Shown: positions 1-12,554 of the stretch, one piece after another
How positions within the stretch are numbered: the stretch's first letter is position 1
Layout: each line of letters starts with the position of its first letter
Virus record (IMG/VR): IMGVR_UViG_2740892211_000014
DNA from: a virus
Lineage: Duplodnaviria > Heunggongvirae > Uroviricota > Caudoviricetes
Length of the DNA stretch: 12,554 nt
Strand: one strand, 5' to 3'
Made by a program: the position numbers and the translations under genes
Notes under the pieces: generated by a model
The model's database searches: none
Seen by the model: the letters and a program-made list of their open reading frames with translations, nothing else
Told to the model about the DNA's origin: nothing

Positions 1-291
1 TGCCGCTGCCTGAAGCTTCGCAACGTTAAGCTGATAAACATTCGACGCATTGCGGTTACCCTGGCGACGCGCCTTACGCGTTAACCAGCCTTCTGCTTCC
101 AGCCGTGCGATAGCCGTTCTGACGGTACTCATCCCCGCGCCAATCTGACGGGCAATGGTTTCAATTGATGGCCAGCACACACCTTCGTCATTACTGAAAT
201 CAGCCAGGCGGGCCATAATTGCCACGCTGGATAATTTCATGCCTGATGCAGCGCAACCATCCCATACATAGCCGGTTAATTTAGTGCTCAT
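1..291 (-). CDS. Phage replication-initiation-type winged-HTH protein, N-terminal 97 codons only (gene continues past window start)
   Basis: Reverse-strand ATG at 291-289; open in frame to position 1. Translation MSTKLTGYVWDGCAASGMKLSSVAIMARLADFSNDEGVCWPSIETIARQIGAGMSTVRTAIARLEAEGWLTRKARRQGNRNASNVYQLNV resembles the HTH N-domain of prophage replication proteins (recalled, not searched). Position after cro/cII matches lambda O. Confidence 0.55.
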   Translation of the reverse strand, partial: MSTKLTGYVWDGCAASGMKLSSVAIMARLADFSNDEGVCWPSIETIARQIGAGMSTVRTAIARLEAEGWLTRKARRQGNRNASNVYQLNVAKLQAAA

Positions 292-300
292 GACCGACCT

Positions 301-639
301 CTATTTCCCTGAATTTACGACGAAACTGTTCGAGCGGGCTGAAGCACTCATGCTCATAGCCTTCGCGGAGGTAGATAACACGTTGTGTTTCCGACTCCCA
401 ACGAATGACTCTGACGGGCACTCCGTAGTGATCTTTGAACCAGCGGTTAACTTGTCGCAAAGGACTGTCTCCTTCTGCCGGTTGAAATCACCCACAGCCC
501 ACTCTGCAAAGCTGTGGGTTACAATTTCCCTGTCACCTGGTACATTCACTGCATAGCAATATTCCACCTTCGCTTTTCCACCCGGAACAGGAAGCGCAAT
601 CAGTTGCGAGCGACGGTAGTGTGTTGTTAAACTGTTCAT
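301..639 (-). CDS. Hypothetical protein, possibly frameshifted (see findings)
   Basis: 112-codon ORF whose ATG (639-637) overlaps the stop of the upstream cII-like gene (ATGA coupling). The C-terminal half is serine-rich and looks non-protein-like, while another - strand frame (460-281) reads as better protein. Confidence 0.35.
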
Positions 640-1205
640 GCGTTAGTTTCTCCACAACCAGAAGCAATCGACGCCACGACGCCCGGAGCTGCACACTCGC
701 GGGCGTCATTACTTTCTGAAATGCAAAAAATTTTGTAGACAAGTGCTGCATGCTCCTGCAGCTTCGAAATTGAGAGATACAGCTCGTCGTTAATTGCTGT
801 CTTCTCATGCGGTTCCACTACACCGTCTTCGATTGCTGAACGAATCTGTTTTGAATAACTGCCGATCTGTTCAATGACTTCCAGCAGACGCTGGTTAATA
901 TCGGCGTTGTCCACATCCTCGACGTCAGGAAGAGACACAAAGACGCCATTTGCAGACTGCGCCACAGCATCAGCAATGAAGTGAGTGCCACCAGCACGCT
1001 GTAAAACCATTGCCCATCCCAGCGGGAAAATCTGATCGCCATCTGCACGAAGGCGGTTGAATAAAGCGTTTTCTGTTACATCGAGCCAGTCAGCCGCTTC
1101 AGCGTAACCACCCGGCAACGCCGCGATAGTTTTTCTGACAGCTTTCACGTACCACTCAGGCTGTTTTTCTATTTTCCAGTGATGCTTACCCACAATTAGC
1201 CTCAT
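636..1205 (-). CDS. Phage CII-type regulatory protein (phage 186 CII / CP76-like family)
   Basis: 189-aa ORF immediately downstream of the cro-like gene in the same operon. Spacing of conserved hydrophobic/Gly positions resembles phage 186 CII-family proteins (recalled). No obvious Shine-Dalgarno at the 1205 start, so the start is uncertain. Confidence 0.5.
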
Positions 1206-1236
1206 CGTTCTGTGGTTAAAAAATGAAAGTGTTCTG

Positions 1237-1437
1237 CTAATCTTTCGGATAGATATCCGGTCTTAAGTCAGATTTCGTAATTGCACCTGACGTGCATTGC
1301 TCAAGTTTTTTAGCCAGCACAAAACTGGCTTTTTTATAGCCATTGAAAACCAGCCGTAAGTAGCCAGGTGTTGAGCCAACTTTTCCGGCCAACTCGCCCT
1401 GCTGTTCTTTGGTTAAAGAGTCCCAATACGCTTTCAT
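1237..1437 (-). CDS. Cro-like small DNA-binding regulator (Cro/YdaS-type)
   Basis: Start set at the internal ATG (1437-1435), which has a GGAGG Shine-Dalgarno ~8 nt upstream on the - strand. The 66-aa product MKAYWDSLTKEQQGELAGKVGSTPGYLRLVFNGYKKASFVLAKKLEQCTSGAITKSDLRPDIYPKD is typical of small Cro-like proteins. Divergent from the cI-like gene. The longer 167-aa ORF in the track would run across the operator region. Confidence 0.65.
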   Translation of the reverse strand: MKAYWDSLTKEQQGELAGKVGSTPGYLRLVFNGYKKASFVLAKKLEQCTSGAITKSDLRPDIYPKD

Positions 1438-1443
1438 ACAATA

Positions 1444-1510
1444 TGTACCTCCGGTGTACATGTTACATGATTGAAATGAACCTTCAAGATACTTGTACCT
1501 TAACGGTACA
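1444..1510. promoter_or_regulatory. OR-like operator region between cro-like and cI-like genes
   Basis: Two 17-bp near-palindromes with the same half-sites: TGTACC-TCCGG-TGTACA (1444-1460) and TGTACC-TTAAC-GGTACA (1494-1510, extending to a perfect 8-bp-arm palindrome 1492-1512). A related site lies in the downstream promoter at 2249-2265. Confidence 0.5.
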
Positions 1511-1527
1511 AGGGTTTTAATTTCGTT

Positions 1528-2202
1528 ATGAAAACAATCCATGACATCCGGCGGTCTAACGCCAGAAAACTGAGAGATGGTGTTGGCGGGAATTCTTCCT
1601 TTGCCACTATGATTGATCGCGAGCCAACCCAGACCAGCAGGTTTATGGGAGATGGTGCTACTAAAAATATCGGTGACAGCATGGCACGACACATCGAAAA
1701 ATGTTTCGACCTGCCTGTCGGATGGCTCGATCAAGAACACCAGACAACGAACATCACAAAAAAACCTGATGTTTCAATCACTAATAAACAAATCACATTA
1801 GTCCCTGTCATATCATGGGTACAGGCCGGAGCATGGAAAGAAGTTGGATATTCTGAGGTTGATTTGAGCACAGCAGAAACGTATCCCTGCCCTGTACCCT
1901 GTGGGGAAATGACTTATATCTTGCGGGTGATAGGTGATTCAATGATTGATGAGTACCGCCCGGGAGACATGATTTTTGTCGATCCTGAAGTACCTGCCTG
2001 CCACGGTGACGACGTTATTGCATTGATGCACGATACAGGTGAAACCACCTTCAAAAGGTTGATAGAAGATGGGACACAGCGTTATCTCAAAGCGTTAAAC
2101 CCAAACTGGCCTGAGCCTTACATTAAGATCAACGGTAATTGCTCTATAATTGGTACAGTGATTTTCTCAGGAAAACCAAGAAGATACAAAATCAAAGCCT
2201 AA
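1528..2202 (+). CDS. CI-type phage repressor with C-terminal S24 (LexA-like) autopeptidase domain
   Basis: 224 aa. C-terminal region contains VISWVQAGAW and RVIGDSM ... TFKRL, the Ser/Lys dyad context typical of S24 repressors. N-terminal region resembles the phage CI-repressor HTH domain. Divergent from the cro-like gene across the operator region. Confidence 0.8.
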   Translation: MKTIHDIRRSNARKLRDGVGGNSSFATMIDREPTQTSRFMGDGATKNIGDSMARHIEKCFDLPVGWLDQEHQTTNITKKPDVSITNKQITLVPVISWVQAGAWKEVGYSEVDLSTAETYPCPVPCGEMTYILRVIGDSMIDEYRPGDMIFVDPEVPACHGDDVIALMHDTGETTFKRLIEDGTQRYLKALNPNWPEPYIKINGNCSIIGTVIFSGKPRRYKIKA

Positions 2203-2214
2203 TCAATGTTTATG

Positions 2215-2237
2215 AACCTGCTTCGGCAGGTTTTTTT
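2215..2237 (+). terminator. Rho-independent terminator after the cI-like gene
   Basis: AACCTGC-TTCG-GCAGGTT stem-loop followed by T7 (2231-2237), 13 nt after the cI stop codon. Confidence 0.7.
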
Positions 2238-2241
2238 ATAC

Positions 2242-2269
2242 TTGACAATGTACCTTTGAGATACATAAT
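2242..2269 (+). promoter_or_regulatory. pL-like sigma70 promoter with embedded operator
   Basis: TTGACA (2242-2247), 16-nt spacer, CATAAT (2264-2269). The spacer and -10 overlap TGTACC-TTTGA-GATACA (2249-2265), matching the OR half-site consensus. Points toward the + strand early-left genes. Confidence 0.55.
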
Positions 2270-2395
2270 GAACCCAAGCGAAACAACGAACAGGCAGGAC
2301 GCCCACGAAGTAGCCGCCTGGGGCATATGAAGTCCAGGATGATTCGTTGAGTCATGTTGTGCCACTAGGCACTCATGTTAAAGCAGGTGTATGAA

Positions 2396-2671
2396 ATGAA
2401 AGTCCAGATTTTAAACAATAACTGTGAAGTCGTTTGGTCATACGACATAGCCGCCCCTGTAGATCAGAGCGGCGATAGCTGGACCAATGAGAAACATCAG
2501 ATTATGGCTGGAGTTGTGTTCTCTTTACGCCGTGCTTTGGAACAGGCTGAAGTATTTCCATCAGACCCTGAATGGAAATGGCCTTTTTCTATTTGCCCAA
2601 ATTCGGAGAACACATTTCAGAAAATTGGTCAGAAAGTCGCACTCGAAGAGCATCAGCCAACTGTTTCCTGA
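2396..2671 (+). CDS. Hypothetical small protein, first ORF downstream of the pL-like promoter
   Basis: ATG at 2396 preceded by AGGTG (2385-2389) at 6-nt spacing; an in-frame ATG at 2375 lacks a Shine-Dalgarno. 91 aa, no recognisable family. Its 3' end overlaps the convergent ORF 2589-2834 by 83 nt, so the true stop or the reality of one partner is uncertain. Confidence 0.4.
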   Translation: MKVQILNNNCEVVWSYDIAAPVDQSGDSWTNEKHQIMAGVVFSLRRALEQAEVFPSDPEWKWPFSICPNSENTFQKIGQKVALEEHQPTVS

Positions 2672-2834
2672 TTTTTTCAGGTAACTCGTCGGCATCGCAG
2701 AAACAACAACGCTCGATCATGTTGAAAGCCGATTCGTAGAACTGTTTCTGCTGAGTGTCGCTGAGACAGGAAAAGAGCGACGTTACGATGATTTTATTAA
2801 TTGCATTATCAAGTTCTTTTTCATCAAAAGTCAT
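2589..2834 (-). CDS. Hypothetical 81-aa protein, antisense to the early-left operon
   Basis: ATG (2834-2832) preceded by AAGGAA (2846-2841) at 6-nt spacing. Translation MTFDEKELDNAINKIIVTSLFSCLSDTQQKQFYESAFNMIERCCFCDADELPEKIRKQLADALRVRLSDQFSEMCSPNLGK is protein-like; no family recognised. Confidence 0.45.
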   Translation of the reverse strand: MTFDEKELDNAINKIIVTSLFSCLSDTQQKQFYESAFNMIERCCFCDADELPEKIRKQLADALRVRLSDQFSEMCSPNLGK

Positions 2835-3074
2835 TTGATTTTCCTTTTATGTATACGGGCTTAAAAGGATACCACCGAGCCTGAAGTGGTGAAAAGACAG
2901 GCACATAACAGCTAAGTATTTTCAACCAAAGAGAATCCTTAGCGTTGTGGTGAATGCGGCTCAGCGCACGCGGGTTAAGGTTGAGGCTGACAGTCGACCT
3001 TCTGTGGATACCCACCCGTCTGGTGTGCAACCTTCGCCAGGCACCGGGAGGCACCCGGCACCACAACTTTATGC

Positions 3075-3134
3075 TGTGTGTAGTCCTGGCGGTACCAGTT
3101 TGTACCCTTGCTTCCGGCTGGTACCGCTCTTTTT
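3075..3134 (+). ncRNA. Candidate DicF-like prophage sRNA ending in an intrinsic terminator
   Basis: Perfect 10-bp stem GCGGTACCAG (3089-3098) / CTGGTACCGC (3118-3127) followed by TCTTTTT. TGGCGGTACCAGTTTGTACCC resembles the 3' half of E. coli DicF (recalled as TGGCGGTATCAGTTTTACTCC ... CCGCC-TTTTT). Lies in an ORF-free stretch downstream of the immunity region, as dicF does in Qin. 5' end undefined. Confidence 0.3.
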
Positions 3135-3135
3135 A

Positions 3136-3222
3136 CAAAACAGAGAAGAGCATCACCGGACGACGGGCTCATAACCCAATCCATCCGGGCGGCGGTCACC
3201 GCAGGTGTTCTTCTCTGTTTTG
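3136..3222. repeat. 14-bp perfect inverted repeat flanking a 59-bp GC-rich spacer
   Basis: CAAAACAGAGAAGA (3136-3149) and TCTTCTCTGTTTTG (3209-3222) are exact reverse complements. Starts immediately after the terminator T-run. Spacer contains further short GC stems (CCGGA...CCGGG, CACCGC). Confidence 0.6.
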
Positions 3223-3347
3223 TGGAGAAACTAACCGCCCCTGCGGGGGCATCTATTGAAACGTAATTGCTTAATAATCGCCGGATGGCGAGGGCTTCCT
3301 TTTCCCAAAATTCAGCGCAGTGCAGCGCATATAAAGTGGAGAACGAA

Positions 3348-3884
3348 ATGTCATTTATTAAAACTTTTTCCGGGAAGCATTTTTATTATGACAAGATAAA
3401 TAAAGACGACATCGTTATTAACGATATCGCGGTTTCCCTTTCAAATATCTGTCGCTTTGCTGGTCATCTTTCACACTTCTACAGCGTCGCCCAACATGCG
3501 GTGCTTTGCAGCCAGCTGGTACCGCAGGAGTTTGCTTTTGAAGCGTTAATGCATGATGCAACAGAAGCGTATTGCCAGGACATCCCCGCACCACTGAAAC
3601 GCCTTCTTCCTGACTATAAACGGATGGAAGAAAAAATAGACGCCGTAATCCGTGAGAAATACGGGTTACCCCCGGTTATGAGTACACCCGTGAAATATGC
3701 CGATCTCATCATGCTGGCAACCGAACGCCGCGATCTCGGGCTTGATGATGGCTCTTTCTGGCCTGTGCTGGAAGGTATCCCGGCAACAGAGATATTCAAC
3801 GTGATTCCACTGGCTCCAGGCCATGCCTACGGGATGTTTATGGAACGCTTTAACGAATTATCGGAGTTACACAAATGCGCATGA
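3348..3884 (+). CDS. HD-domain phosphohydrolase (YfbR-like 5'-deoxynucleotidase family)
   Basis: ATG 3348 with GGAGA ~9 nt upstream. 178 aa with the HD signature (H in VAQHAVL, HD in ALMHDATEAY, followed by D in CQDIPAPLK), similar to small prophage HD hydrolases. The upstream 27 codons of the longer ORF are taken as non-coding. Confidence 0.65.
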   Translation: MSFIKTFSGKHFYYDKINKDDIVINDIAVSLSNICRFAGHLSHFYSVAQHAVLCSQLVPQEFAFEALMHDATEAYCQDIPAPLKRLLPDYKRMEEKIDAVIREKYGLPPVMSTPVKYADLIMLATERRDLGLDDGSFWPVLEGIPATEIFNVIPLAPGHAYGMFMERFNELSELHKCA

Positions 3885-4237
3885 ATGTTTTCGAAATGGA
3901 AGGGTTTCTGCGCGGGAAATGTGTACCGCGAGATCTGAAAGTGAATGAAACGGATGCTGAATACCTGGTGCGTAAATTTGATGCGCTTGAAGCTAAATGT
4001 GCAGCACTGGAAAACAAAGTAATACCAGTGTCAGCTGAACTGCCGCCAGCAAATGAAAGTGTTCTGTTATTTGATGCTAACGGAGAAGGCTGGCTGATTG
4101 GCTGGCGTTCTCTCTGGTACACATGGGGGCAAAAAGAAACCGGAGAATGGCAGTGGACATTTCAAGTCGGGGACCTTGAAAACGTCAATATTACTCACTG
4201 GGCAGTAATACCGAAAGCACCGGAGACTAAGAAATGA
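3875..4237 (+). CDS. DUF551-family phage protein
   Basis: 120 aa; start overlaps the upstream gene's end. C-terminal ELPPANESVLLFDANGEGWLIGW ... ITHWAVIPKAPE matches the DUF551 pattern (LPxxxxxVL ... THWxPxPxxP) as recalled. Confidence 0.55.
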   Translation: MRMNVFEMEGFLRGKCVPRDLKVNETDAEYLVRKFDALEAKCAALENKVIPVSAELPPANESVLLFDANGEGWLIGWRSLWYTWGQKETGEWQWTFQVGDLENVNITHWAVIPKAPETKK

Positions 4238-4449
4238 GCGTGATAAAAACTCATACAGGAATTGTTATCACCCGAGACGGTGAAAAGCGGATGAAATTAC
4301 ATTCCACTGAAACGTCCTGGGTTGCCGAACGTTGTGAATCCTACGACAAAAAGACTGGTTACCGTTGGGGTGCACCTAACATGCGTCGCCGTCTGCTACT
4401 GGACAGCATCAGGCCAATAAAACAGGTAGCAACCAGGGAACAAAATTAA
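4234..4449 (+). CDS. Hypothetical small phage protein (71 aa)
   Basis: ATGA start/stop overlap with the upstream gene (translational coupling); same strand and operon as xis/int. No family recognised. Confidence 0.45.
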   Translation: MSVIKTHTGIVITRDGEKRMKLHSTETSWVAERCESYDKKTGYRWGAPNMRRRLLLDSIRPIKQVATREQN

Positions 4450-4508
4450 TTATCAGGACTGGAATTTGATATTACTGCCCGTGTGCAGCGGGCTAAGTGG
4501 AGAAACAT

Positions 4509-4715
4509 ATGCTGAACCTCGATTGTGTTCCAATCTCAACTTATTGCAAAGAAACTGGCGAAACTCCTGAAGCAATAAACAAACGTGTACAGCGCGGTGT
4601 TTGGCGTGAAGGTGTTCAGGTTTTAAAGGTTGAAGGCGTTAAGGAGAGGTGGATTGATCTTAGTGAGGTTGCAAAATGGGCCAGACAAAACTGCTCAAAC
4701 TACCGCGCGGCGTAA
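4509..4715 (+). CDS. xis: Excisionase-like DNA-binding protein
   Basis: ATG 4509 with GTGGAG upstream at 6-nt spacing. 68 aa, MLNLDCVPISTYCKETGETPEAINKRVQRGVWREGVQVLKVEGVKERWIDLSEVAKWA has excisionase-like winged-helix features. 3' end overlaps the int start by 40 nt, as in lambda xis-int. Confidence 0.6.
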   Translation: MLNLDCVPISTYCKETGETPEAINKRVQRGVWREGVQVLKVEGVKERWIDLSEVAKWARQNCSNYRAA

Positions 4716-5848
4716 CAATCAGGAAACACCGCCAGGGCGAAACGATCAATATAACTTTCACCTACAAAGGAGTTAAATGTCGTGAGCCTCTTTCCAATCT
4801 GGAAGTAACACCAAAGAACATTAAATACGCTGAGCGCACACTCGGCGAAATTCATAATAAGATCGAAAGGGGAACATTCATTTATGCGGAATATTTTCCC
4901 CGTTCTGCTCGTTTGAAAATTTTTGGTAATGCTGCTGCAGGCAAAACGGTAAAAATGTACCTGGACGAATACCTTGAAATCTGCGAAACGAGGAAACTTT
5001 CACCATCCACGATCGGTGGTTATAAAAAATGCCGTAGTGCGTTAGCCTCACTTCACATTTGCCCTGCAAGTGAATTAACACCAGCAACCCTGAAAGCGTG
5101 GATTCAAAGCCAGAAAACGACCTTAAAAACCATTCGCAACCAGTTATCTTTCCTGCGGTCAGCACTTGATGAAGCCGTGACCGATGGGGTACTTCAAATT
5201 AACCCCGTATCGTTAGTAACAGCTTCGCGCTACCAAAGTGATAAGTCAGAAGCAGAAAGCAGCTACGTAGTTGATCCGCTATCACCAGCAGAAGTTGATG
5301 CATTACTAGCAGCAGCCGGAAACAAACAATGGGAAAATCTGTTCCGGTTCGCTATACATACAGGCCTGCGTAGTTCTGAATTATGTGCCCTTCGATGGCG
5401 TGATATCGACTTTGTTGGAAAAACTGCCCATGTCCAGAGCGCAAGTGTTGTCGGTGTTATCAAAGGGACAAAGACAAAAGCAGGTACTCGGAAAGTTGAA
5501 CTGACAGAAGAGGCAATGTTGGCGCTGATAAATCAGAAGCCATTTACATTCATGAAGGATGCTACTGTCTTTGAAGATCCAAAGACCAATAAGCCTTGGG
5601 CAAGTGCTGATGCAATTAGGAAAAAAGCATGGGTGCCAACATTGCGAAAAGCAGGTATTCGTTACAGAAACCCATATCAAACCAGGCATACATTCGCCAC
5701 CAGCCATATCAGCCGAGGAGCAAACCTGTTTTGGCTTGCAGCTCAAATGGGGCATAAAGGGCCGGAGATGCTTTTCAGGCACTATGGTTCGTATCTTAAA
5801 GAGTATGATAACTTTACATCGATAAATCATTTGCATAATCATAATTAA
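4676..5848 (+). CDS. int: Phage tyrosine integrase (lambda-Int type with arm-binding N-domain)
   Basis: 390 aa. N-terminal KLPRGVTIRKHRQGETINITFTYKGVKCRE is arm-binding-like. C-terminal domain has the conserved R (FAIHTGLRSSE), the H-x-x-R context (RHTFATSH) and tyrosine in LFRHYGSY. Adjacent to the att repeat. Confidence 0.9.
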   Translation: MGQTKLLKLPRGVTIRKHRQGETINITFTYKGVKCREPLSNLEVTPKNIKYAERTLGEIHNKIERGTFIYAEYFPRSARLKIFGNAAAGKTVKMYLDEYLEICETRKLSPSTIGGYKKCRSALASLHICPASELTPATLKAWIQSQKTTLKTIRNQLSFLRSALDEAVTDGVLQINPVSLVTASRYQSDKSEAESSYVVDPLSPAEVDALLAAAGNKQWENLFRFAIHTGLRSSELCALRWRDIDFVGKTAHVQSASVVGVIKGTKTKAGTRKVELTEEAMLALINQKPFTFMKDATVFEDPKTNKPWASADAIRKKAWVPTLRKAGIRYRNPYQTRHTFATSHISRGANLFWLAAQMGHKGPEMLFRHYGSYLKEYDNFTSINHLHNHN

Positions 5849-5889: not shown

Positions 5890-6669
5890 TTGATTACAAT
5901 TACATTCGACAAACTAATCACCTACATATCTTCAGTTGGTACTTTCATTTCAGCAATTGCTGCATTATATGCAATATGGTTAACGATATTTCAAAGAAGG
6001 CTCTCTTATAAACCCAATTTAGTGATAGACACTTTAAATATCAAGATGAATGTTAACGATTTCAACGGTTTTCATGTTGATATCTTACAAGCCCCTACGC
6101 TTCCACAAACAAAATTTTCAAACATAGGATTGGGGGCGGCAATTTCACTTAGATATCATTGGGATTTTAATTATAAAAAAAACATAAATCTATATTTAGA
6201 GTTGTTTTCGAAAAAATTCAAAAAAGAAGATAAATCTTTTACAACCGACTCCCAGTATGGAATATTCAAAATAATAAAAGAAAGAAAAGTATATATGTAC
6301 AATACTTTATCGACACCTTACGATATTGATTTTTCGTTACCATATAGTATAGATAAGAAGTCAAAAAACATTTTTGTACCAACCGCGGCAATTGATATTC
6401 TATTGAATATAGCATATCTTTCACATAGACTTAAATTAGTCGGTTCTTCATCATTCACTGGTCCAAAATTAATTATTGAATATCAAGATATAGAGGGTAA
6501 AACTAAAAAAGTCACTTGGCAAACAAAATTGGAACGTGGAGTGGCACGTTTCAGTGGTGATAATATGGAGGCAGATTTTGCACTACGGTTTACACCTGTA
6601 CCAGAGAAATGGACTACAAAAGGTCTAGAGAAGATACGCAAAAGCGCCGCAAACGCCATGTTCAGATAA
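5890..6669 (+). CDS. Hypothetical membrane-anchored protein, AT-rich cargo (moron) gene between int and att
   Basis: 259-codon ORF with TTG start; first in-frame ATG is codon 53. N-terminal hydrophobic segment ITYISSVGTFISAIAALYAIWLTIF predicts one TM helix before a ~220-aa Lys/Asn/Ile-rich domain. Markedly AT-richer than all flanking genes. No family recognised. Confidence 0.55.
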   Translation: MITITFDKLITYISSVGTFISAIAALYAIWLTIFQRRLSYKPNLVIDTLNIKMNVNDFNGFHVDILQAPTLPQTKFSNIGLGAAISLRYHWDFNYKKNINLYLELFSKKFKKEDKSFTTDSQYGIFKIIKERKVYMYNTLSTPYDIDFSLPYSIDKKSKNIFVPTAAIDILLNIAYLSHRLKLVGSSSFTGPKLIIEYQDIEGKTKKVTWQTKLERGVARFSGDNMEADFALRFTPVPEKWTTKGLEKIRKSAANAMFR

Positions 6670-6698
6670 ATATATAATTAAAACAACAGGTTAATATT

Positions 6699-6734
6699 TT
6701 TCAGACACGGGTTCAACTCCCGCCAGCTCCACCA
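6699..6734 (+). repeat. Diverged copy of the 3' end of the tmRNA gene ssrA (attachment-site repeat; not a full gene)
   Basis: TTTCAGACACGGGTTCAACTCCCGCCAGCTCCACCA matches the recalled ssrA 3' end (TTTCGGACGCGGGTTCAACTCCCGCCAGCTCCACCA) with 2 mismatches at the 5' side. No upstream tmRNA body is present in the window. Confidence 0.6.
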
Positions 6735-6861
6735 ATCATGATTGGACGGTGTAAGGACTACACCAACAAAAACAGGAAGTTATAAGTCTCAGCAGAACAC
6801 CGACCAGACGGTGAGGAGACAAAAAAGGATACGCAACGGAGTCGCGACTCCCTATGACATT

Positions 6862-6888
6862 AAAGCCCGCATCAGCGGGCTTTTTTAT
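6862..6888 (+). terminator. Rho-independent terminator, probably the native terminator downstream of the ancestral ssrA 3' end
   Basis: AAAGCCCGC-ATCA-GCGGGCTTT stem-loop followed by TTTTATT, ~130 nt downstream of the ssrA 3' fragment. Confidence 0.65.
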
Positions 6889-7317
6889 TGGTCCTGACCC
6901 GCCCTGAATAGAATTCATCCAATTACAGTCCAGACATATACAGTATCCCTCAGCTCAGTATCAGCTTCTCGACAAATGGTCACTGTTATTTACCCGTTGC
7001 CAGAAAGAGAATAATTTGCCCCCATAGCCAGCCTTCCCGGAATCTGTATATTCATTAATATTGTTATCGATTCCATCAAGTAACATAGGTTGGATGCGAT
7101 TGATCTTACTCACATTAGTCGACACGGAACTCAGTAAGTTGAACTCTGAAAAAGCAGTTTAAATAGCATTTAAACAAATGCCACCAGTTCGAAAAAGAGT
7201 ATAAGCACACTTAATATATTGTTTTAATTATTCATTTCCTTTCAACCCAATTCTTATCCCTCACATTATTTGTTATTAATTTGTTGTTTTTGATCACAAC
7301 AAGAAAACAATATGTAA

Positions 7318-8394
<1,077 letters not shown>

Positions 8395-8413
8395 GCGCAA
8401 AGGAATTGAGCGG

Positions 8414-9682
8414 ATGTATGATTTTGTGATTATTGGCGGCGGCATCATCGGCATGTCGACCGCCATGCAACTGATTGATGTTTATCCGGATGCCCGCATT
8501 GCGTTGCTGGAAAAAGAGTCCGGCCCGGCCTTTCATCAGACGGGCCACAACAGCGGCGTGATCCATGCCGGGGTCTATTACACGCCCGGTAGCCTGAAGG
8601 CACAGTTTTGCCTGGCGGGAAACCGCGCCACCAAAGCCTTTTGCGATCAAAACGGCATTCGCTATGACAACTGCGGCAAGATGCTGGTCGCCACCTCTGA
8701 ACTCGAAATGGAACGGATGCGCGCGTTGTGGGAACGCACGGCGGCGAACGGTATCGAGCGCGAGTGGTTAAAAGCCGAGGAACTGCGCGAGCGCGAACCG
8801 AATATCACCGGGCTCGGCGGCATTTTTGTGCCGTCCAGCGGCATTGTCAGCTATCGCGAAGTGACGGCGGCGATGGCAAAAATCTTCCAGGCCAGAGGCG
8901 GCGAGATTATTTATAACGCCGAAGTCAGCGCCCTCAGTGAGCATAAAAACGGCGTGGTGATACGTACCCGTCAGGGCGGTGAATATGAAGCATCGACGCT
9001 GATTAGCTGTTCCGGGCTGATGGCTGACCGGCTGGTGAAAATGCTCGGCCTCGAACCGGGCTTTATTATCTGCCCGTTCCGTGGCGAGTATTTCCGCCTT
9101 GCGCCGGAGCATAACCAGATTGTTAACCACCTGATTTACCCCATTCCCGACCCCGCGATGCCATTTTTGGGCGTGCATCTCACCCGCATGATCGATGGCA
9201 GCGTGACCGTCGGGCCAAACGCGGTGCTGGCTTTTAAACGCGAAGGCTATCGCAAGCGCGATTTCTCGTTTAGTGACACGCTGGAGATTTTAGGCTCGTC
9301 GGGGATTCGCCGGGTGCTGCAAAACCATCTACGCTCAGGATTGGGCGAGATGAAAAACTCGCTGTGCAAAAGCGGCTATCTGCGGCTGGTGCAAAAGTAT
9401 TGTCCCCGGCTTTCGTTAAGCGATCTCCAGCCCTGGCCCGCCGGTGTGCGGGCGCAGGCGGTATCGCCGGACGGCAAGCTGATTGACGATTTTCTGTTTG
9501 TCACCACCCCGCGCACGATCCACACCTGCAATGCGCCCTCCCCGGCAGCGACATCAGCAATTCCTATTGGTGCGCATATTGTCAGCAAGGTACAAACGCT
9601 GTTGGCAAGCCAGAGTAACCCCGGACGCACGCTGCGAGCGGCACGTAGTGTGGATGCCTTACACGCCGCATTTAATCAATAA
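8414..9682 (+). CDS. lhgO: L-2-hydroxyglutarate oxidase/dehydrogenase (FAD-dependent)
   Basis: Start at ATG 8414 (MYDFVIIGGGIIGMSTAMQL, Rossmann GxGxxG FAD motif), giving 422 aa as in E. coli LhgO/YgaF. The longer ORF from 8348 overlaps csiD and lacks an RBS. Confidence 0.93.
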   Translation: MYDFVIIGGGIIGMSTAMQLIDVYPDARIALLEKESGPAFHQTGHNSGVIHAGVYYTPGSLKAQFCLAGNRATKAFCDQNGIRYDNCGKMLVATSELEMERMRALWERTAANGIEREWLKAEELREREPNITGLGGIFVPSSGIVSYREVTAAMAKIFQARGGEIIYNAEVSALSEHKNGVVIRTRQGGEYEASTLISCSGLMADRLVKMLGLEPGFIICPFRGEYFRLAPEHNQIVNHLIYPIPDPAMPFLGVHLTRMIDGSVTVGPNAVLAFKREGYRKRDFSFSDTLEILGSSGIRRVLQNHLRSGLGEMKNSLCKSGYLRLVQKYCPRLSLSDLQPWPAGVRAQAVSPDGKLIDDFLFVTTPRTIHTCNAPSPAATSAIPIGAHIVSKVQTLLASQSNPGRTLRAARSVDALHAAFNQ

Positions 9683-9704
9683 CCTTTGAAAACAGGACGT
9701 AACA

Positions 9705-11153
9705 ATGAAACTTAACGACAGTAACTTATTCCGCCAGAACGCGTTGATTAATGGGGAATGGCTGGACGCCAACAATGGCGAGGTCATCGACGTCACCAAT
9801 CCGGCGAACGGCGACAAGCTGGGTAGCGTGCCGAAAATGGGCGCTGATGAAACCCGCGCCGCTATCGACGCCGCCAACCGCGCCCTGCCCGCCTGGCGTG
9901 CGCTCACCGCCAAAGAACGCGCCAACATTCTGCGCAACTGGTTCAATTTGATGATGGAGCATCAGGACGATTTAGCGCGCCTGATGACCCTCGAACAGGG
10001 CAAACCACTGGCGGAAGCGAAAGGCGAAATCAGCTACGCAGCCTCTTTTATTGAGTGGTTTGCCGAAGAAGGCAAACGTATTTATGGCGATACCATTCCC
10101 GGTCATCAGGCCGACAAACGCCTGATTGTTATCAAACAGCCGATTGGCGTTACCGCCGCCATCACGCCGTGGAACTTCCCGGCGGCGATGATTACCCGTA
10201 AAGCCGGTCCGGCGCTGGCGGCAGGCTGCACGATGGTGCTGAAACCTGCCAGTCAGACGCCGTTCTCTGCGCTGGCGCTGGCGGAACTGGCGATTCGCGC
10301 AGGCGTTCCGGCTGGCGTATTTAACGTGGTCACCGGTTCGGCGGGCGCGGTCGGTAACGAACTGACCAGCAATCCGCTGGTGCGCAAGCTGTCGTTTACC
10401 GGCTCGACCGAAATTGGCCGCCAGTTAATGGAACAGTGCGCGAAAGACATCAAGAAAGTGTCGCTGGAGCTGGGCGGCAACGCGCCGTTTATCGTCTTTG
10501 ACGATGCCGATCTCGATAAAGCCGTGGAAGGCGCGCTGGCTTCTAAATTCCGCAACGCCGGGCAAACCTGCGTCTGTGCCAACCGTTTATATGTGCAGGA
10601 CGGCGTGTATGACCGCTTTGCCGAAAAATTACAGCAGGCGGTGAGCAAACTGCACATCGGCGACGGGCTGGAGAAAGGCGTCACCATCGGGCCGCTGATT
10701 GATGAAAAAGCGGTAGCAAAAGTGGAAGAGCATATTGCCGATGCGCTGGAGAAAGGTGCGCGCGTGGTTTGCGGCGGTAAAGCACATGAACGCGGCGGCA
10801 ACTTCTTCCAGCCGACCATTCTGGTGGACGTTCCGGCCAACGCCAAAGTGTCGAAAGAAGAGACGTTCGGCCCCCTTGCCCCGCTATTCCGCTTTAAAGA
10901 TGAAGCCGATGTGATTGCGCAGGCCAATGACACCGAGTTTGGCCTTGCCGCCTATTTCTACGCCCGTGATTTAAGCCGCGTCTTCCGCGTGGGCGAAGCG
11001 CTGGAGTACGGCATCGTCGGCATCAATACCGGCATTATTTCCAATGAAGTGGCCCCGTTCGGCGGCATTAAAGCCTCGGGTCTGGGTCGTGAAGGTTCGA
11101 AGTATGGCATCGAAGATTACTTAGAAATCAAATATATGTGCATCGGTCTTTAA
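9705..11153 (+). CDS. gabD: NADP-dependent succinate-semialdehyde dehydrogenase
   Basis: 482 aa, matches recalled E. coli GabD (MKLNDSNLFRQNALINGEWLDA ...). Aldehyde dehydrogenase motifs present (catalytic Cys in GQTCVCANR, Glu in LELGGNAP). AGGA Shine-Dalgarno upstream. Confidence 0.95.
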   Translation: MKLNDSNLFRQNALINGEWLDANNGEVIDVTNPANGDKLGSVPKMGADETRAAIDAANRALPAWRALTAKERANILRNWFNLMMEHQDDLARLMTLEQGKPLAEAKGEISYAASFIEWFAEEGKRIYGDTIPGHQADKRLIVIKQPIGVTAAITPWNFPAAMITRKAGPALAAGCTMVLKPASQTPFSALALAELAIRAGVPAGVFNVVTGSAGAVGNELTSNPLVRKLSFTGSTEIGRQLMEQCAKDIKKVSLELGGNAPFIVFDDADLDKAVEGALASKFRNAGQTCVCANRLYVQDGVYDRFAEKLQQAVSKLHIGDGLEKGVTIGPLIDEKAVAKVEEHIADALEKGARVVCGGKAHERGGNFFQPTILVDVPANAKVSKEETFGPLAPLFRFKDEADVIAQANDTEFGLAAYFYARDLSRVFRVGEALEYGIVGINTGIISNEVAPFGGIKASGLGREGSKYGIEDYLEIKYMCIGL

Positions 11154-11166
11154 CTGGAGAACGCGA

Positions 11167-12447
11167 ATGAGCAGCAATAAAGAGTTAATGCAGCGCCGCA
11201 GTCAGGCGATTCCCCGTGGCGTTGGGCAAATTCACCCGATTTTCGCTGACCGCGCGGAAAACTGCCGGGTGTGGGACGTTGAAGGCCGTGAGTATCTTGA
11301 TTTCGCGGGCGGGATTGCGGTGCTCAATACCGGGCACCTGCATCCGAAGGTGGTGGCCGCGGTGGAAGCGCAGTTGAAAAAACTGTCGCACACCTGCTTC
11401 CAGGTGCTGGCTTACGAGCCGTATCTGGAGCTGTGCGAGATTATGAATCAGAAGGTGCCGGGCGATTTCGCCAAGAAAACGCTGCTGGTTACGACCGGTT
11501 CCGAAGCGGTGGAAAACGCGGTGAAAATCGCCCGCGCCGCCACCAAACGTAGCGGTACTATCGCCTTTAGCGGTGCGTATCACGGGCGCACGCACTACAC
11601 GCTGGCGCTGACCGGTAAGGTGAACCCATACTCTGCGGGCATGGGACTCATGCCGGGTCATGTTTATCGCGCGCTTTATCCTTGCCCGCTGCACGGCATA
11701 AGCGAGGATGACGCTATCGCCAGCATCCACCGGATCTTCAAAAATGACGCCGCGCCGGAAGATATCGCTGCCATCGTGATTGAGCCCGTTCAGGGCGAAG
11801 GCGGTTTCTACGCCGCGACGCCAGCCTTTATGCAGCGTTTACGCGCGCTGTGTGACGAGCACGGGATCATGCTGATTGCCGATGAAGTGCAGAGCGGCGC
11901 AGGGCGTACCGGCACGCTGTTTGCGATGGAGCAAATGGGCGTGGCACCAGATCTCACCACCTTTGCGAAATCGATCGCAGGCGGCTTCCCGCTGGCGGGC
12001 GTCACCGGTCGCGCCGAGGTGATGGACGCCGTCGCACCAGGCGGGCTGGGCGGCACCTATGCGGGTAACCCGATTGCCTGCGTGGCGGCGCTGGAAGTGT
12101 TGAAGGTGTTCGAGCAGGAAAATCTGCTGCAAAAAGCCAACGTTCTGGGGCAGAAGTTGAAAGATGGATTGCTGGCGATCGCCGAAAAACACACCGAGAT
12201 CGGCGACGTACGCGGCCTGGGAGCGATGATTGCCATCGAGCTGTTTGAAGATGGCGATCACAGCAAACCGGACGCAAAACTCACCGCCGAGATCGTGGCA
12301 CGCGCCCGCGATAAGGGTCTGATTCTTCTCTCCTGCGGCCCGTATTACAACGTGCTGCGCATCCTTGTACCGCTCACCATTGAAGACGCTCAGATCCGTC
12401 AGGGTCTGGAGATCATCAGCCAGTGTTTTGCTGAGGCGAAGCTGTAG
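11167..12447 (+). CDS. gabT: 4-aminobutyrate aminotransferase (PLP-dependent, class III)
   Basis: 426 aa, near-identical to recalled E. coli GabT (MSSNKELMQRRSQAIPRGVGQIHPIFADRAENCRVWDVEGREYLDFAGGIAVLNTGH ...). PLP-lysine context in TTFAKSIAGG. GGAGAA Shine-Dalgarno upstream. Confidence 0.95.
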   Translation: MSSNKELMQRRSQAIPRGVGQIHPIFADRAENCRVWDVEGREYLDFAGGIAVLNTGHLHPKVVAAVEAQLKKLSHTCFQVLAYEPYLELCEIMNQKVPGDFAKKTLLVTTGSEAVENAVKIARAATKRSGTIAFSGAYHGRTHYTLALTGKVNPYSAGMGLMPGHVYRALYPCPLHGISEDDAIASIHRIFKNDAAPEDIAAIVIEPVQGEGGFYAATPAFMQRLRALCDEHGIMLIADEVQSGAGRTGTLFAMEQMGVAPDLTTFAKSIAGGFPLAGVTGRAEVMDAVAPGGLGGTYAGNPIACVAALEVLKVFEQENLLQKANVLGQKLKDGLLAIAEKHTEIGDVRGLGAMIAIELFEDGDHSKPDAKLTAEIVARARDKGLILLSCGPYYNVLRILVPLTIEDAQIRQGLEIISQCFAEAKL

Positions 12448-12554
12448 CACCGCACCATGCCGGAGGCGACGCTTTTGAACTGCACCCCAAATGTTGGACA
12501 TAATCTGACATCTGAAGGTGCAGTTTATGAAACATTCATTTGAAGTAAAACTTG

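Follow-up and report, generated by a model that had tools for sequence, protein, structure and literature searches.

The question raised by this locus is whether the palindrome TGTACC-N5-GGTACA, repeated beside its immunity genes, is the operator of a lambda-like switch. In the 12,554-nucleotide stretch of viral DNA analysed here (the window), an earlier note had listed three 17-bp copies, at 1444-1460, 1494-1510 and 2249-2265, and had read them as the OR and OL of such a switch. The motif occurs at all three positions, with 1, 0 and 1 mismatches, respectively. The first two copies lie inside the 90-bp gap between the cro-like and cI-like genes, and the third, as had been proposed, covers the spacer and the first two -10 bases of a near-consensus pL. 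All three sites are real, but the set was incomplete: the search for further copies that the note had suggested added two weaker, conserved sites, at 1477-1493 and 2269-2285, bringing the total to five. With a probability of about 0.85, these sites are the operators of an e14/SfV-type lambdoid immunity switch, binding by the repressor being the part that we infer.

By nucleotide identity, the locus is an immunity region of the e14/SfV type, comprising ymfT/croE, ymfK/cohE and the early-left promoter. It is 98-99.8% identical to K-12 e14, SfV and many E. coli genomes (98.9% to K-12 e14 over window positions 58-2348 and 98.0% to SfV over 1200-2400), and the SfIV repressor is 100% identical to the repressor of the window. 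Among 5426 complete E. coli genomes, 2148 (about 40%) have ymfK and ymfT annotated under the match. The SfV GenBank record, annotated in 2002, carries a "putative operator region" that corresponds to window positions 1443-1511. The immunity region is already known and its lambdoid mechanism is the textbook one, in DNA for which a putative operator had been recorded before; novelty is low.

From left to right, the leftward cro gene, OR, the rightward cI gene, the terminator and pL follow one another. The cro-like gene (YmfT/CroE type; 1237-1437, minus strand) encodes a 66-residue helix-turn-helix protein with YdaS/HTH_3 matches that falls into phrog_35, transcriptional repressor (E = 3e-15). 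It is divergent from the cI-like gene (YmfK/CohE type; 1528-2202, plus strand), whose product has 224 residues. A CII-like gene (636-1205, minus strand) is found left of cro, and a tyrosine integrase gene (4676-5848) further to the right of the repressor gene. The intrinsic terminator of the repressor gene, a GC-rich hairpin followed by a T-run (2214-2240, plus strand), stands directly upstream of pL; its stem is kept in relatives with compensatory changes, and it is annotated in the SfV and Ayreon records.

The repressor consists of an N-terminal DNA-binding domain (about residues 1-75) and a C-terminal S24 autopeptidase domain (Peptidase_S24, E = 1.5e-26). The C-terminal domain matches that of lambda CI (E = 2e-9), and the alignment includes the lysine of the TFK(K/R)L motif. 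The residues for self-cleavage, Ala100-Gly101, Ser138 and Lys176, are invariant across relatives, within the conserved motifs QAGAW, G[D/E]SM and TFKRL. The N-terminal domain matched no Pfam family, even at E = 5; its profile retrieved the repressor N-terminal domain of PDB entry 5D50 (E = 4.7e-10) in a search of PDB sequences and also matched chains named "phage repressor protein CI". Entry 5D50 is the Rep protein of Salmonella phage SPC32H, which has 199 residues and matches the window repressor in the N-terminal domain, not in the S24 domain. An antirepressor, not self-cleavage, inactivates SPC32H Rep. A single-sequence AlphaFold2 model of the window repressor was set aside (pLDDT 31).

Within the intergenic gap, OR1 (1444-1460) reads TGTACC-TCCGG-TGTACA (TGTACCTCCGGTGTACA), with 1 mismatch. 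OR3 (1494-1510) is a perfect palindrome with no mismatches, TGTACC-TTAAC-GGTACA (TGTACCTTAACGGTACA), and between the two lies the weaker but conserved OR2 (1477-1493), TGAACC-TTCAA-GATACT (TGAACCTTCAAGATACT). On the other side of the repressor gene, OL1 (2249-2265) reads TGTACC-TTTGA-GATACA (TGTACCTTTGAGATACA), again with 1 mismatch, and is followed by the weaker OL2 (2269-2285), TGAACC-CAAGC-GAAACA (TGAACCCAAGCGAAACA). The consensus of the five sites is A-TGTAC(C)-N5-(G)GTACA-T.

Three sites with at most one mismatch were observed, compared with 0.027 expected from base composition in the 12.5-kb window. At up to three mismatches the window holds 11 matches versus 2.9 +/- 1.7 in dinucleotide shuffles, and none of 200 shuffles reached 11. 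An independent, motif-blind repeat finder retrieved the same motif family, and no other repeated symmetric element was found in either control region. In the complete 37-kb genome of SfV, all five matches with at most two mismatches fall in the immunity region, so that no additional copies occur elsewhere in that phage. Six operator strings had no match among the searchable full-text literature. One intragenic match with two mismatches (1893-1909) was set aside as chance: the left half alone matches and encodes an invariant PCPVPCG peptide, and the motif is not kept there in relatives.

The five sites are placed on three predicted promoters. The early-left promoter pL (2242-2269, plus strand) has a -35 element TTGACA at 2242-2247, a 16-bp spacer and a -10 element CATAAT at 2264-2269; the two hexamers together match the consensus at 11 of 12 positions and are invariant in the 17 sequences aligned below, and the record of phage Ayreon has a promoter annotated at the equivalent position. 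OL1 occupies the spacer and reaches two bases into the -10 element, and OL2 runs from its last base across the predicted start, with its centre 20 bp from that of OL1 and a 3-bp spacer between the sites.

In the intergenic gap, conservation points to two further promoters, each matching the consensus at 8 of 12 positions in the window. The PR-like promoter of cro (1460-1487, minus strand) would comprise a -35 element TTGAAG (1487-1482), a 16-bp spacer and a -10 element TAACAT (1465-1460), with a predicted start at about 1452-1455. The TTG of its -35 element (1487-1485) is conserved, and its -10 element reads TAATAT or CATAAT in relatives; PR falls below the promoter-scan threshold in the window because of a rare T-to-C change in this element. 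The PRM-like promoter of the repressor (1493-1528, plus strand) would comprise TTGTAC (1493-1498), a 17-bp spacer and TTTAAT (1516-1521). Here nnTAAT is conserved, while the next 6-7 nucleotides up to the ATG vary in sequence and are constant in length, and the alignment revealed no Shine-Dalgarno sequence before the repressor ATG. This combination indicates a leaderless repressor mRNA starting at or beside the ATG at 1528, as for lambda cI. In K-12 coordinates, PRM is predicted to start at 1,202,933 on the minus strand, PR at about 1,203,006-1,203,009 on the plus strand and pL at about 1,202,185 on the minus strand.

OR1 reaches from the last base of the PR -10 element across the region in which PR transcription is predicted to start, and contains the Shine-Dalgarno sequence of cro (GGAGG, 1452-1448, minus strand). 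OR2 overlaps the PR -35 element and abuts that of PRM, with its centre at -43 from the cI start, and OR3, centred at -26, overlaps the -35 element and spacer of PRM. The OR spacers are 16 and 0 bp, such that OR1 and OR2 lie 33 bp apart centre to centre and OR2 and OR3 abut at 17 bp.

To follow the sites among relatives, we used 16 repressor homologues from other genera, 73-88% identical to the window repressor, found by scanning a single genome of each species. The genera represented are Pseudocitrobacter, Klebsiella, Atlantibacter, Leclercia, Phytobacter, Enterobacter, Pantoea, Trabulsiella, Kluyvera, Limnobaculum, Rahnella, Edwardsiella and others; with the window, the homologues form an alignment of 17 non-redundant sequences from 17 genera or species. 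The motif has the same offsets in all relatives, at -84, -51 and -34 from the repressor ATG, and recurs about 50-90 bp past the stop codon; most relatives have a further copy 20 bp past this downstream site.

In the OR half-sites, 29 of 36 columns are invariant, versus 3 of 39 in the remaining intergenic DNA (Fisher p = 5e-11). By site, invariant half-site columns number 10 of 12 in OR1, 9 of 12 in OR2, 10 of 12 in OR3 and 11 of 12 in OL1, while the central 5 bp of OR3 and OL1 have none (0 of 5 each, 0 of 10 together). The perfect consensus is present at OR3 in 15 of 17 sequences. At OR2, TGAACC is found in 17 of 17, and most relatives have TGAACC-N5-GGTACT, an imperfect form whose retention suggests a site that is weak by design. 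The left half of OL2 is TGTACC in 15 of 17 sequences; its right half is poorly conserved and partly G[A/C]AACA. Pooled half-sites carry about 2 bits of information at T1, G2, T3 and A4 and about 1.5 bits at C5 and C6, with little beyond positions 1-6. Among 119 close IMG/VR copies, it is again mostly the central 5 bp that vary. These data show that selection acts on the half-sites and leaves the central 5 bp free, a pattern typical of operators bound by dimeric helix-turn-helix proteins.

The arrangement suggests how the switch would operate. Dimers of the CI-like repressor (YmfK/CohE) would recognise the 17-bp two-fold symmetric site through the core half-site TGTAC(C), leaving the central 5 bp unread, and the Cro-like protein (YmfT/CroE) probably recognises the same site. 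With OL1 in the pL spacer and -10 element and OL2 over the start site, repressor bound there would exclude RNA polymerase from pL. Occupation of OR1, which lies over the start of PR and the ribosome-binding site of cro, together with OR2, on the PR -35 element, would keep cro and the genes downstream of it off. OR2, abutting the -35 element of the repressor promoter, is in a position for activation of PRM of the lambda CI kind. Since OR3 covers the PRM -35 element and spacer, it would be expected to mediate negative autoregulation or to serve as the target through which Cro switches cI off. Upon DNA damage, RecA-stimulated self-cleavage at Ala100-Gly101 by Ser138/Lys176 would free both pL (a ymfJ-like gene through to xis/int) and PR (cro, the cII-like gene and beyond). 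From sequence we infer which protein binds, where transcription starts, that OR2 activates and in which order the sites fill.

Gene order, repressor architecture, promoter overlap, half-site conservation and co-inheritance of the motif all support the proposal of a lambda-like OR and OL switch. The locus shares with lambda its gene order and logic: the repressor and cro are divergent, and 17-bp two-fold symmetric operators lie on their promoters, with three sites between the divergent PR and PRM. A second cluster, OL1/OL2, lies on pL past the terminator on the cI side, and the repressor joins an N-terminal DNA-binding domain to an S24 domain with an Ala-Gly cleavage site and a Ser/Lys dyad. 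In lambda, OR2 is centred at about -42 from the leaderless cI start and CI activates PRM from there; the middle OR site of the window is centred at -43.

The differences from lambda concern recognition and geometry. Lambda operators are of the TATCACCGCCAGTGGTA type, to which the recognition sequence in the window is unrelated, and the N-terminal domain of the window repressor is not detectably lambda-like by sequence. Clusters of three operators, separated by 3-7 bp and with the strongest site on PR, were not found: the OR spacers measure 16 and 0 bp, where lambda has 7 and 6 bp, two OL sites are recognisable rather than three, and the best consensus site is on PRM (OR3), whereas in lambda it is on PR. 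OL and OR are about 0.8 kb apart, compared with 2.4 kb in lambda. Given the 33-bp distance from OR1 to OR2, the 20-bp distance from OL1 to OL2 and the abutting OR2 and OR3, lambda-style pairwise cooperativity is not obviously transferable.

These differences leave some room, though we consider it doubtful, for a switch wired unlike that of lambda, with tight negative autoregulation, a low repressor level, an order of occupancy reversed relative to lambda and a 34-bp composite formed by OR2 and OR3. Such a composite element is possible since OR3, the most conserved and presumably the strongest site, lies on the repressor -35 element and, without a spacer, abuts the weak OR2 at the activating position. 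Occupancy of its two halves might be mutually exclusive, or might take place on opposite faces of the helix.

The lambda-like operator reading gains further support from more distant phages. The repressor of Pseudomonas phage vB_Pae_BR133a (263 residues) is 59% identical to that of the window over its first 71 residues and different over the rest, and the cro proteins of the two are 33% identical. Despite the different C-terminal part and host genus, the BR133a control region has the motif TGTACC-N5-GGTACA in the three-site layout of the window, with TGTACCTCCTGGGTACA at -85, TGTACCGTCAAGGTTCT at -50 and TGTACATTTCTGGTACA at -34 from the repressor start. In BR133a, an OL-type copy was not found within 600 bp downstream. 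The motif is absent from homologues in Comamonas, Variovorax and Giesbergeria with N-terminal domains 28-37% identical, which have other palindromes or none; the Comamonas homologue has TTAGCC-N3-GGCTAA twice. These comparisons support the view that the motif travels with the repressor N-terminal domain and the cro gene.

Because cro travels along with the repressor N-terminal domain, such comparisons do not distinguish the CI-like from the Cro-like protein as the reader of the sites. The operators could accordingly be read mainly by the Cro-like protein or another phage regulator, with the CI-like repressor recognising something else. In keeping with this, a cro homologue accompanies the motif in the Pseudomonas phage and in every relative where it could be read (15 of the 17 sequences, with L013 and L021 left out), and the most perfect site is OR3, where lambda Cro binds first. 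We nevertheless regard this reading as improbable. The control regions offer the repressor no other repeated symmetric element, pL needs to be held off in the lysogen, and OL1 and OL2 are the only symmetric elements there. To our knowledge, CI and Cro share operators in all characterised lambdoid switches, and by analogy both the CI-like and Cro-like proteins are expected to read the sites here.

Less probable still is that the conserved hexamers are overlapping promoter, ribosome-binding or terminator signals and contain no repressor motif. Constraints of this kind do account for part of the conservation. The left half of OR1 and its TCC are confounded with the Shine-Dalgarno sequence of cro (CCTCC on the plus strand), which explains the invariant TCC in the centre of this site; the centre of OR2 is confounded with the PR -35 element, and the left half of OR3 with the PRM -35 element, for which TTGTAC (1493-1498) would double. 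A scan also marked the OR3 hairpin and T-run (1492-1512) as terminator-like, but the T-run past 1512 is not conserved among relatives, and a terminator at this palindrome was rejected. These signals do not explain a 6+6 symmetric motif at five places with differing local functions. Neither the right half of OR3 nor that of OL1 is a promoter hexamer, but 5 of 6 columns are invariant in each, and TGAACC of OR2 is invariant in the PR spacer though no hexamer lies there.

The response of e14 to DNA damage bears on the operator reading. In e14, intE and ymfJ on the pL side and ymfM on the PR side show late SOS induction, which has been ascribed to the CI-like repressor (PMC11002266; bioRxiv 10.1101/2020.11.19.390815). 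Late induction of genes to either side of the repressor gene is what derepression of the two promoters under operator control would give, and is consistent with a lambda-like switch.

It is hardly credible that the sites are instead host LexA boxes that place e14-type genes under direct SOS control. An SOS box reads CTGT-N8-ACAG, and TGTA...TACA resembles its outer bases; the window sites, however, read TGT-N11-ACA without the flanking C and G, and so do not qualify as LexA boxes. One paper notes that LexA-repressed genes have been said to include intE and ymfJ, but suggests that an SOS box may matter little for them, as both are under the CI-like repressor (PMC11002266); according to the ymfM preprint, the e14 division inhibitor is not LexA-repressed (bioRxiv 10.1101/2020.11.19.390815). 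The motif, moreover, follows the phage repressor N-terminal domain across hosts. The reading of the sites as chance palindromes in AT-rich intergenic DNA, which has the shortness of the motif and nothing more in its favour, is contradicted by the site statistics and the conservation data, and its probability is negligible.

The window copy differs from its known counterparts in location and in two regulatory positions. It adjoins the glaH-lhgO-gabDT genes instead of lying within icd; to the right of the integrase gene the host genes glaH-lhgO-gabD-gabT follow, with about 97% identity to E. coli. Compared with e14 and SfV, it has TAACAT in place of TAATAT in the PR -10 element (A to G at position 1462) and TGAACC in place of TGTACC in OL2 (T to A at position 2271). 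Over positions 1-4600 there are six differences from the closest E. coli relative, and these are the two that fall in regulatory elements. Among IMG/VR copies, the allele at 1462 is present in 1 of 119 and that at 2271 in 0 of 103. The immunity region had been suggested to be intact; the rare substitutions in the PR -10 element and OL2 call for a caveat. If the wiring were unlike that of lambda, they could represent adaptive retuning of a domesticated prophage.

The operator set reveals no new principle. What it provides is a concrete, testable operator consensus for one of the commonest prophage immunity types of E. coli and Shigella, shared by e14, SfV, SfIV, the cdtI phage and several Stx2c phages. 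Prophage excision is under the control of this immunity type, as are SOS-inducible genes, among them the division inhibitor ymfM. The consensus could be used to annotate prophage inducibility and to design immunity-specific reporters.

Downstream of OL2, we also observed a conserved, structured element in roughly the first 65 nucleotides of the pL transcript (about 2286-2348). It had no Rfam match, and blastn detected no similarity between it and the put region of HK022. A sub-threshold Rfam hit to STnc50 over the terminator and pL region (23 bits versus a cut-off of 55) was the sole hit and was dismissed as chance. The leader hairpin has three compensatory pairs in nine sequences, and many phages of different immunity carry the element behind their early-left promoters, where it is not annotated.

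The operator motif of the window, TGTACC-N5-GGTACA, also occurs upstream of the repressor gene of Pseudomonas phage vB_Pae_BR133a, at positions 1116-1183 of locus L152, where it is arranged in the same three-site layout. The repressors of BR133a and the window have only their N-terminal 71 residues in common, with 59% identity. The conservation of motif and layout where the N-terminal domain alone is common indicates that the operators, DNA-binding domain and cro gene have been exchanged across host genera as a module, independently of the C-terminal domain. An OL-type copy of the phage operator was not found directly downstream of the BR133a repressor gene. Two SOS box-like sequences, CTGTATATACA(G/A), lie directly 3' of this gene, at approximately 2025-2090 of L152.

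[quoted passage not shown] The Comamonas repressor is a distant homologue whose N-terminal domain is 28% identical, and its different palindrome is consistent with an altered specificity.

Within the repressor gene of the window, the sequence TGTACCCTGTGGGGAAA at 1893-1909 matches the operator motif with two mismatches and encodes an invariant PCPVPCG peptide. This match is probably due to chance, since it agrees with the motif in the left half only and the motif is not retained at the DNA level in relatives. The palindrome of OR3, the predicted operator at 1494-1510, widens to an 8-bp stem at 1492-1512 (plus strand) that is followed by GGTTTTAATT, and the scan flags it as terminator-like. The T-run is confined to E. 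coli-type sequence and is not kept in relatives, suggesting that the resemblance to a terminator is probably incidental.

Only six differences separate positions 1-4600 of the window from the closest E. coli relative, KSC1031, and two of these, at 1462 and 2271, touch regulatory elements. The first changes TAATAT to TAACAT in the -10 element of PR, the inferred cro promoter, while the second changes TGTACC to TGAACC in the conserved left half of OL2, a predicted operator at the early-left promoter-like element pL. Both alleles are rare among IMG/VR copies (1 of 119 for 1462 and 0 of 103 for 2271), and neither was found in K-12 e14, Ayreon or any of the 16 inter-genus relatives. A post-hoc estimate places the chance of the two regulatory changes at approximately 0.005. 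The switch could be retuned or decaying in the strain that carries the window.

Directly downstream of pL lies a conserved leader element of approximately 62 nt (2286-2348, plus strand), with a small hairpin at 2293-2295/2301-2303 followed by an outer stem at 2306-2309/2343-2346. The inner hairpin of the element, at 2317-2321/2334-2338, shows three compensatory base pairs among the nine sequences compared. Numerous phages of different immunity type also carry the element after their early-left promoters, among them SfII, ST64B, mEp460, mEp237, SEN34, SPN3UB, ZF40 and YeP1, where it is unannotated. No Rfam family matches it, and blast against HK022 24-30.5 kb showed no similarity. The leader may be a cis-acting RNA, such as a put-like antiterminator, of phages without an obvious N gene.

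To the right of the integrase gene (4676-5848), the remainder of the window (5890-12554) extends into the host genes glaH-lhgO-gabD-gabT, which places the prophage insertion beside the gab operon, whereas K-12 e14 is inserted in icd. A 259-aa ORF at 5890-6669 had no match in a Pfam search. The host genes are only ~97% identical to E. coli genomes, and the host may belong to a divergent Escherichia lineage.
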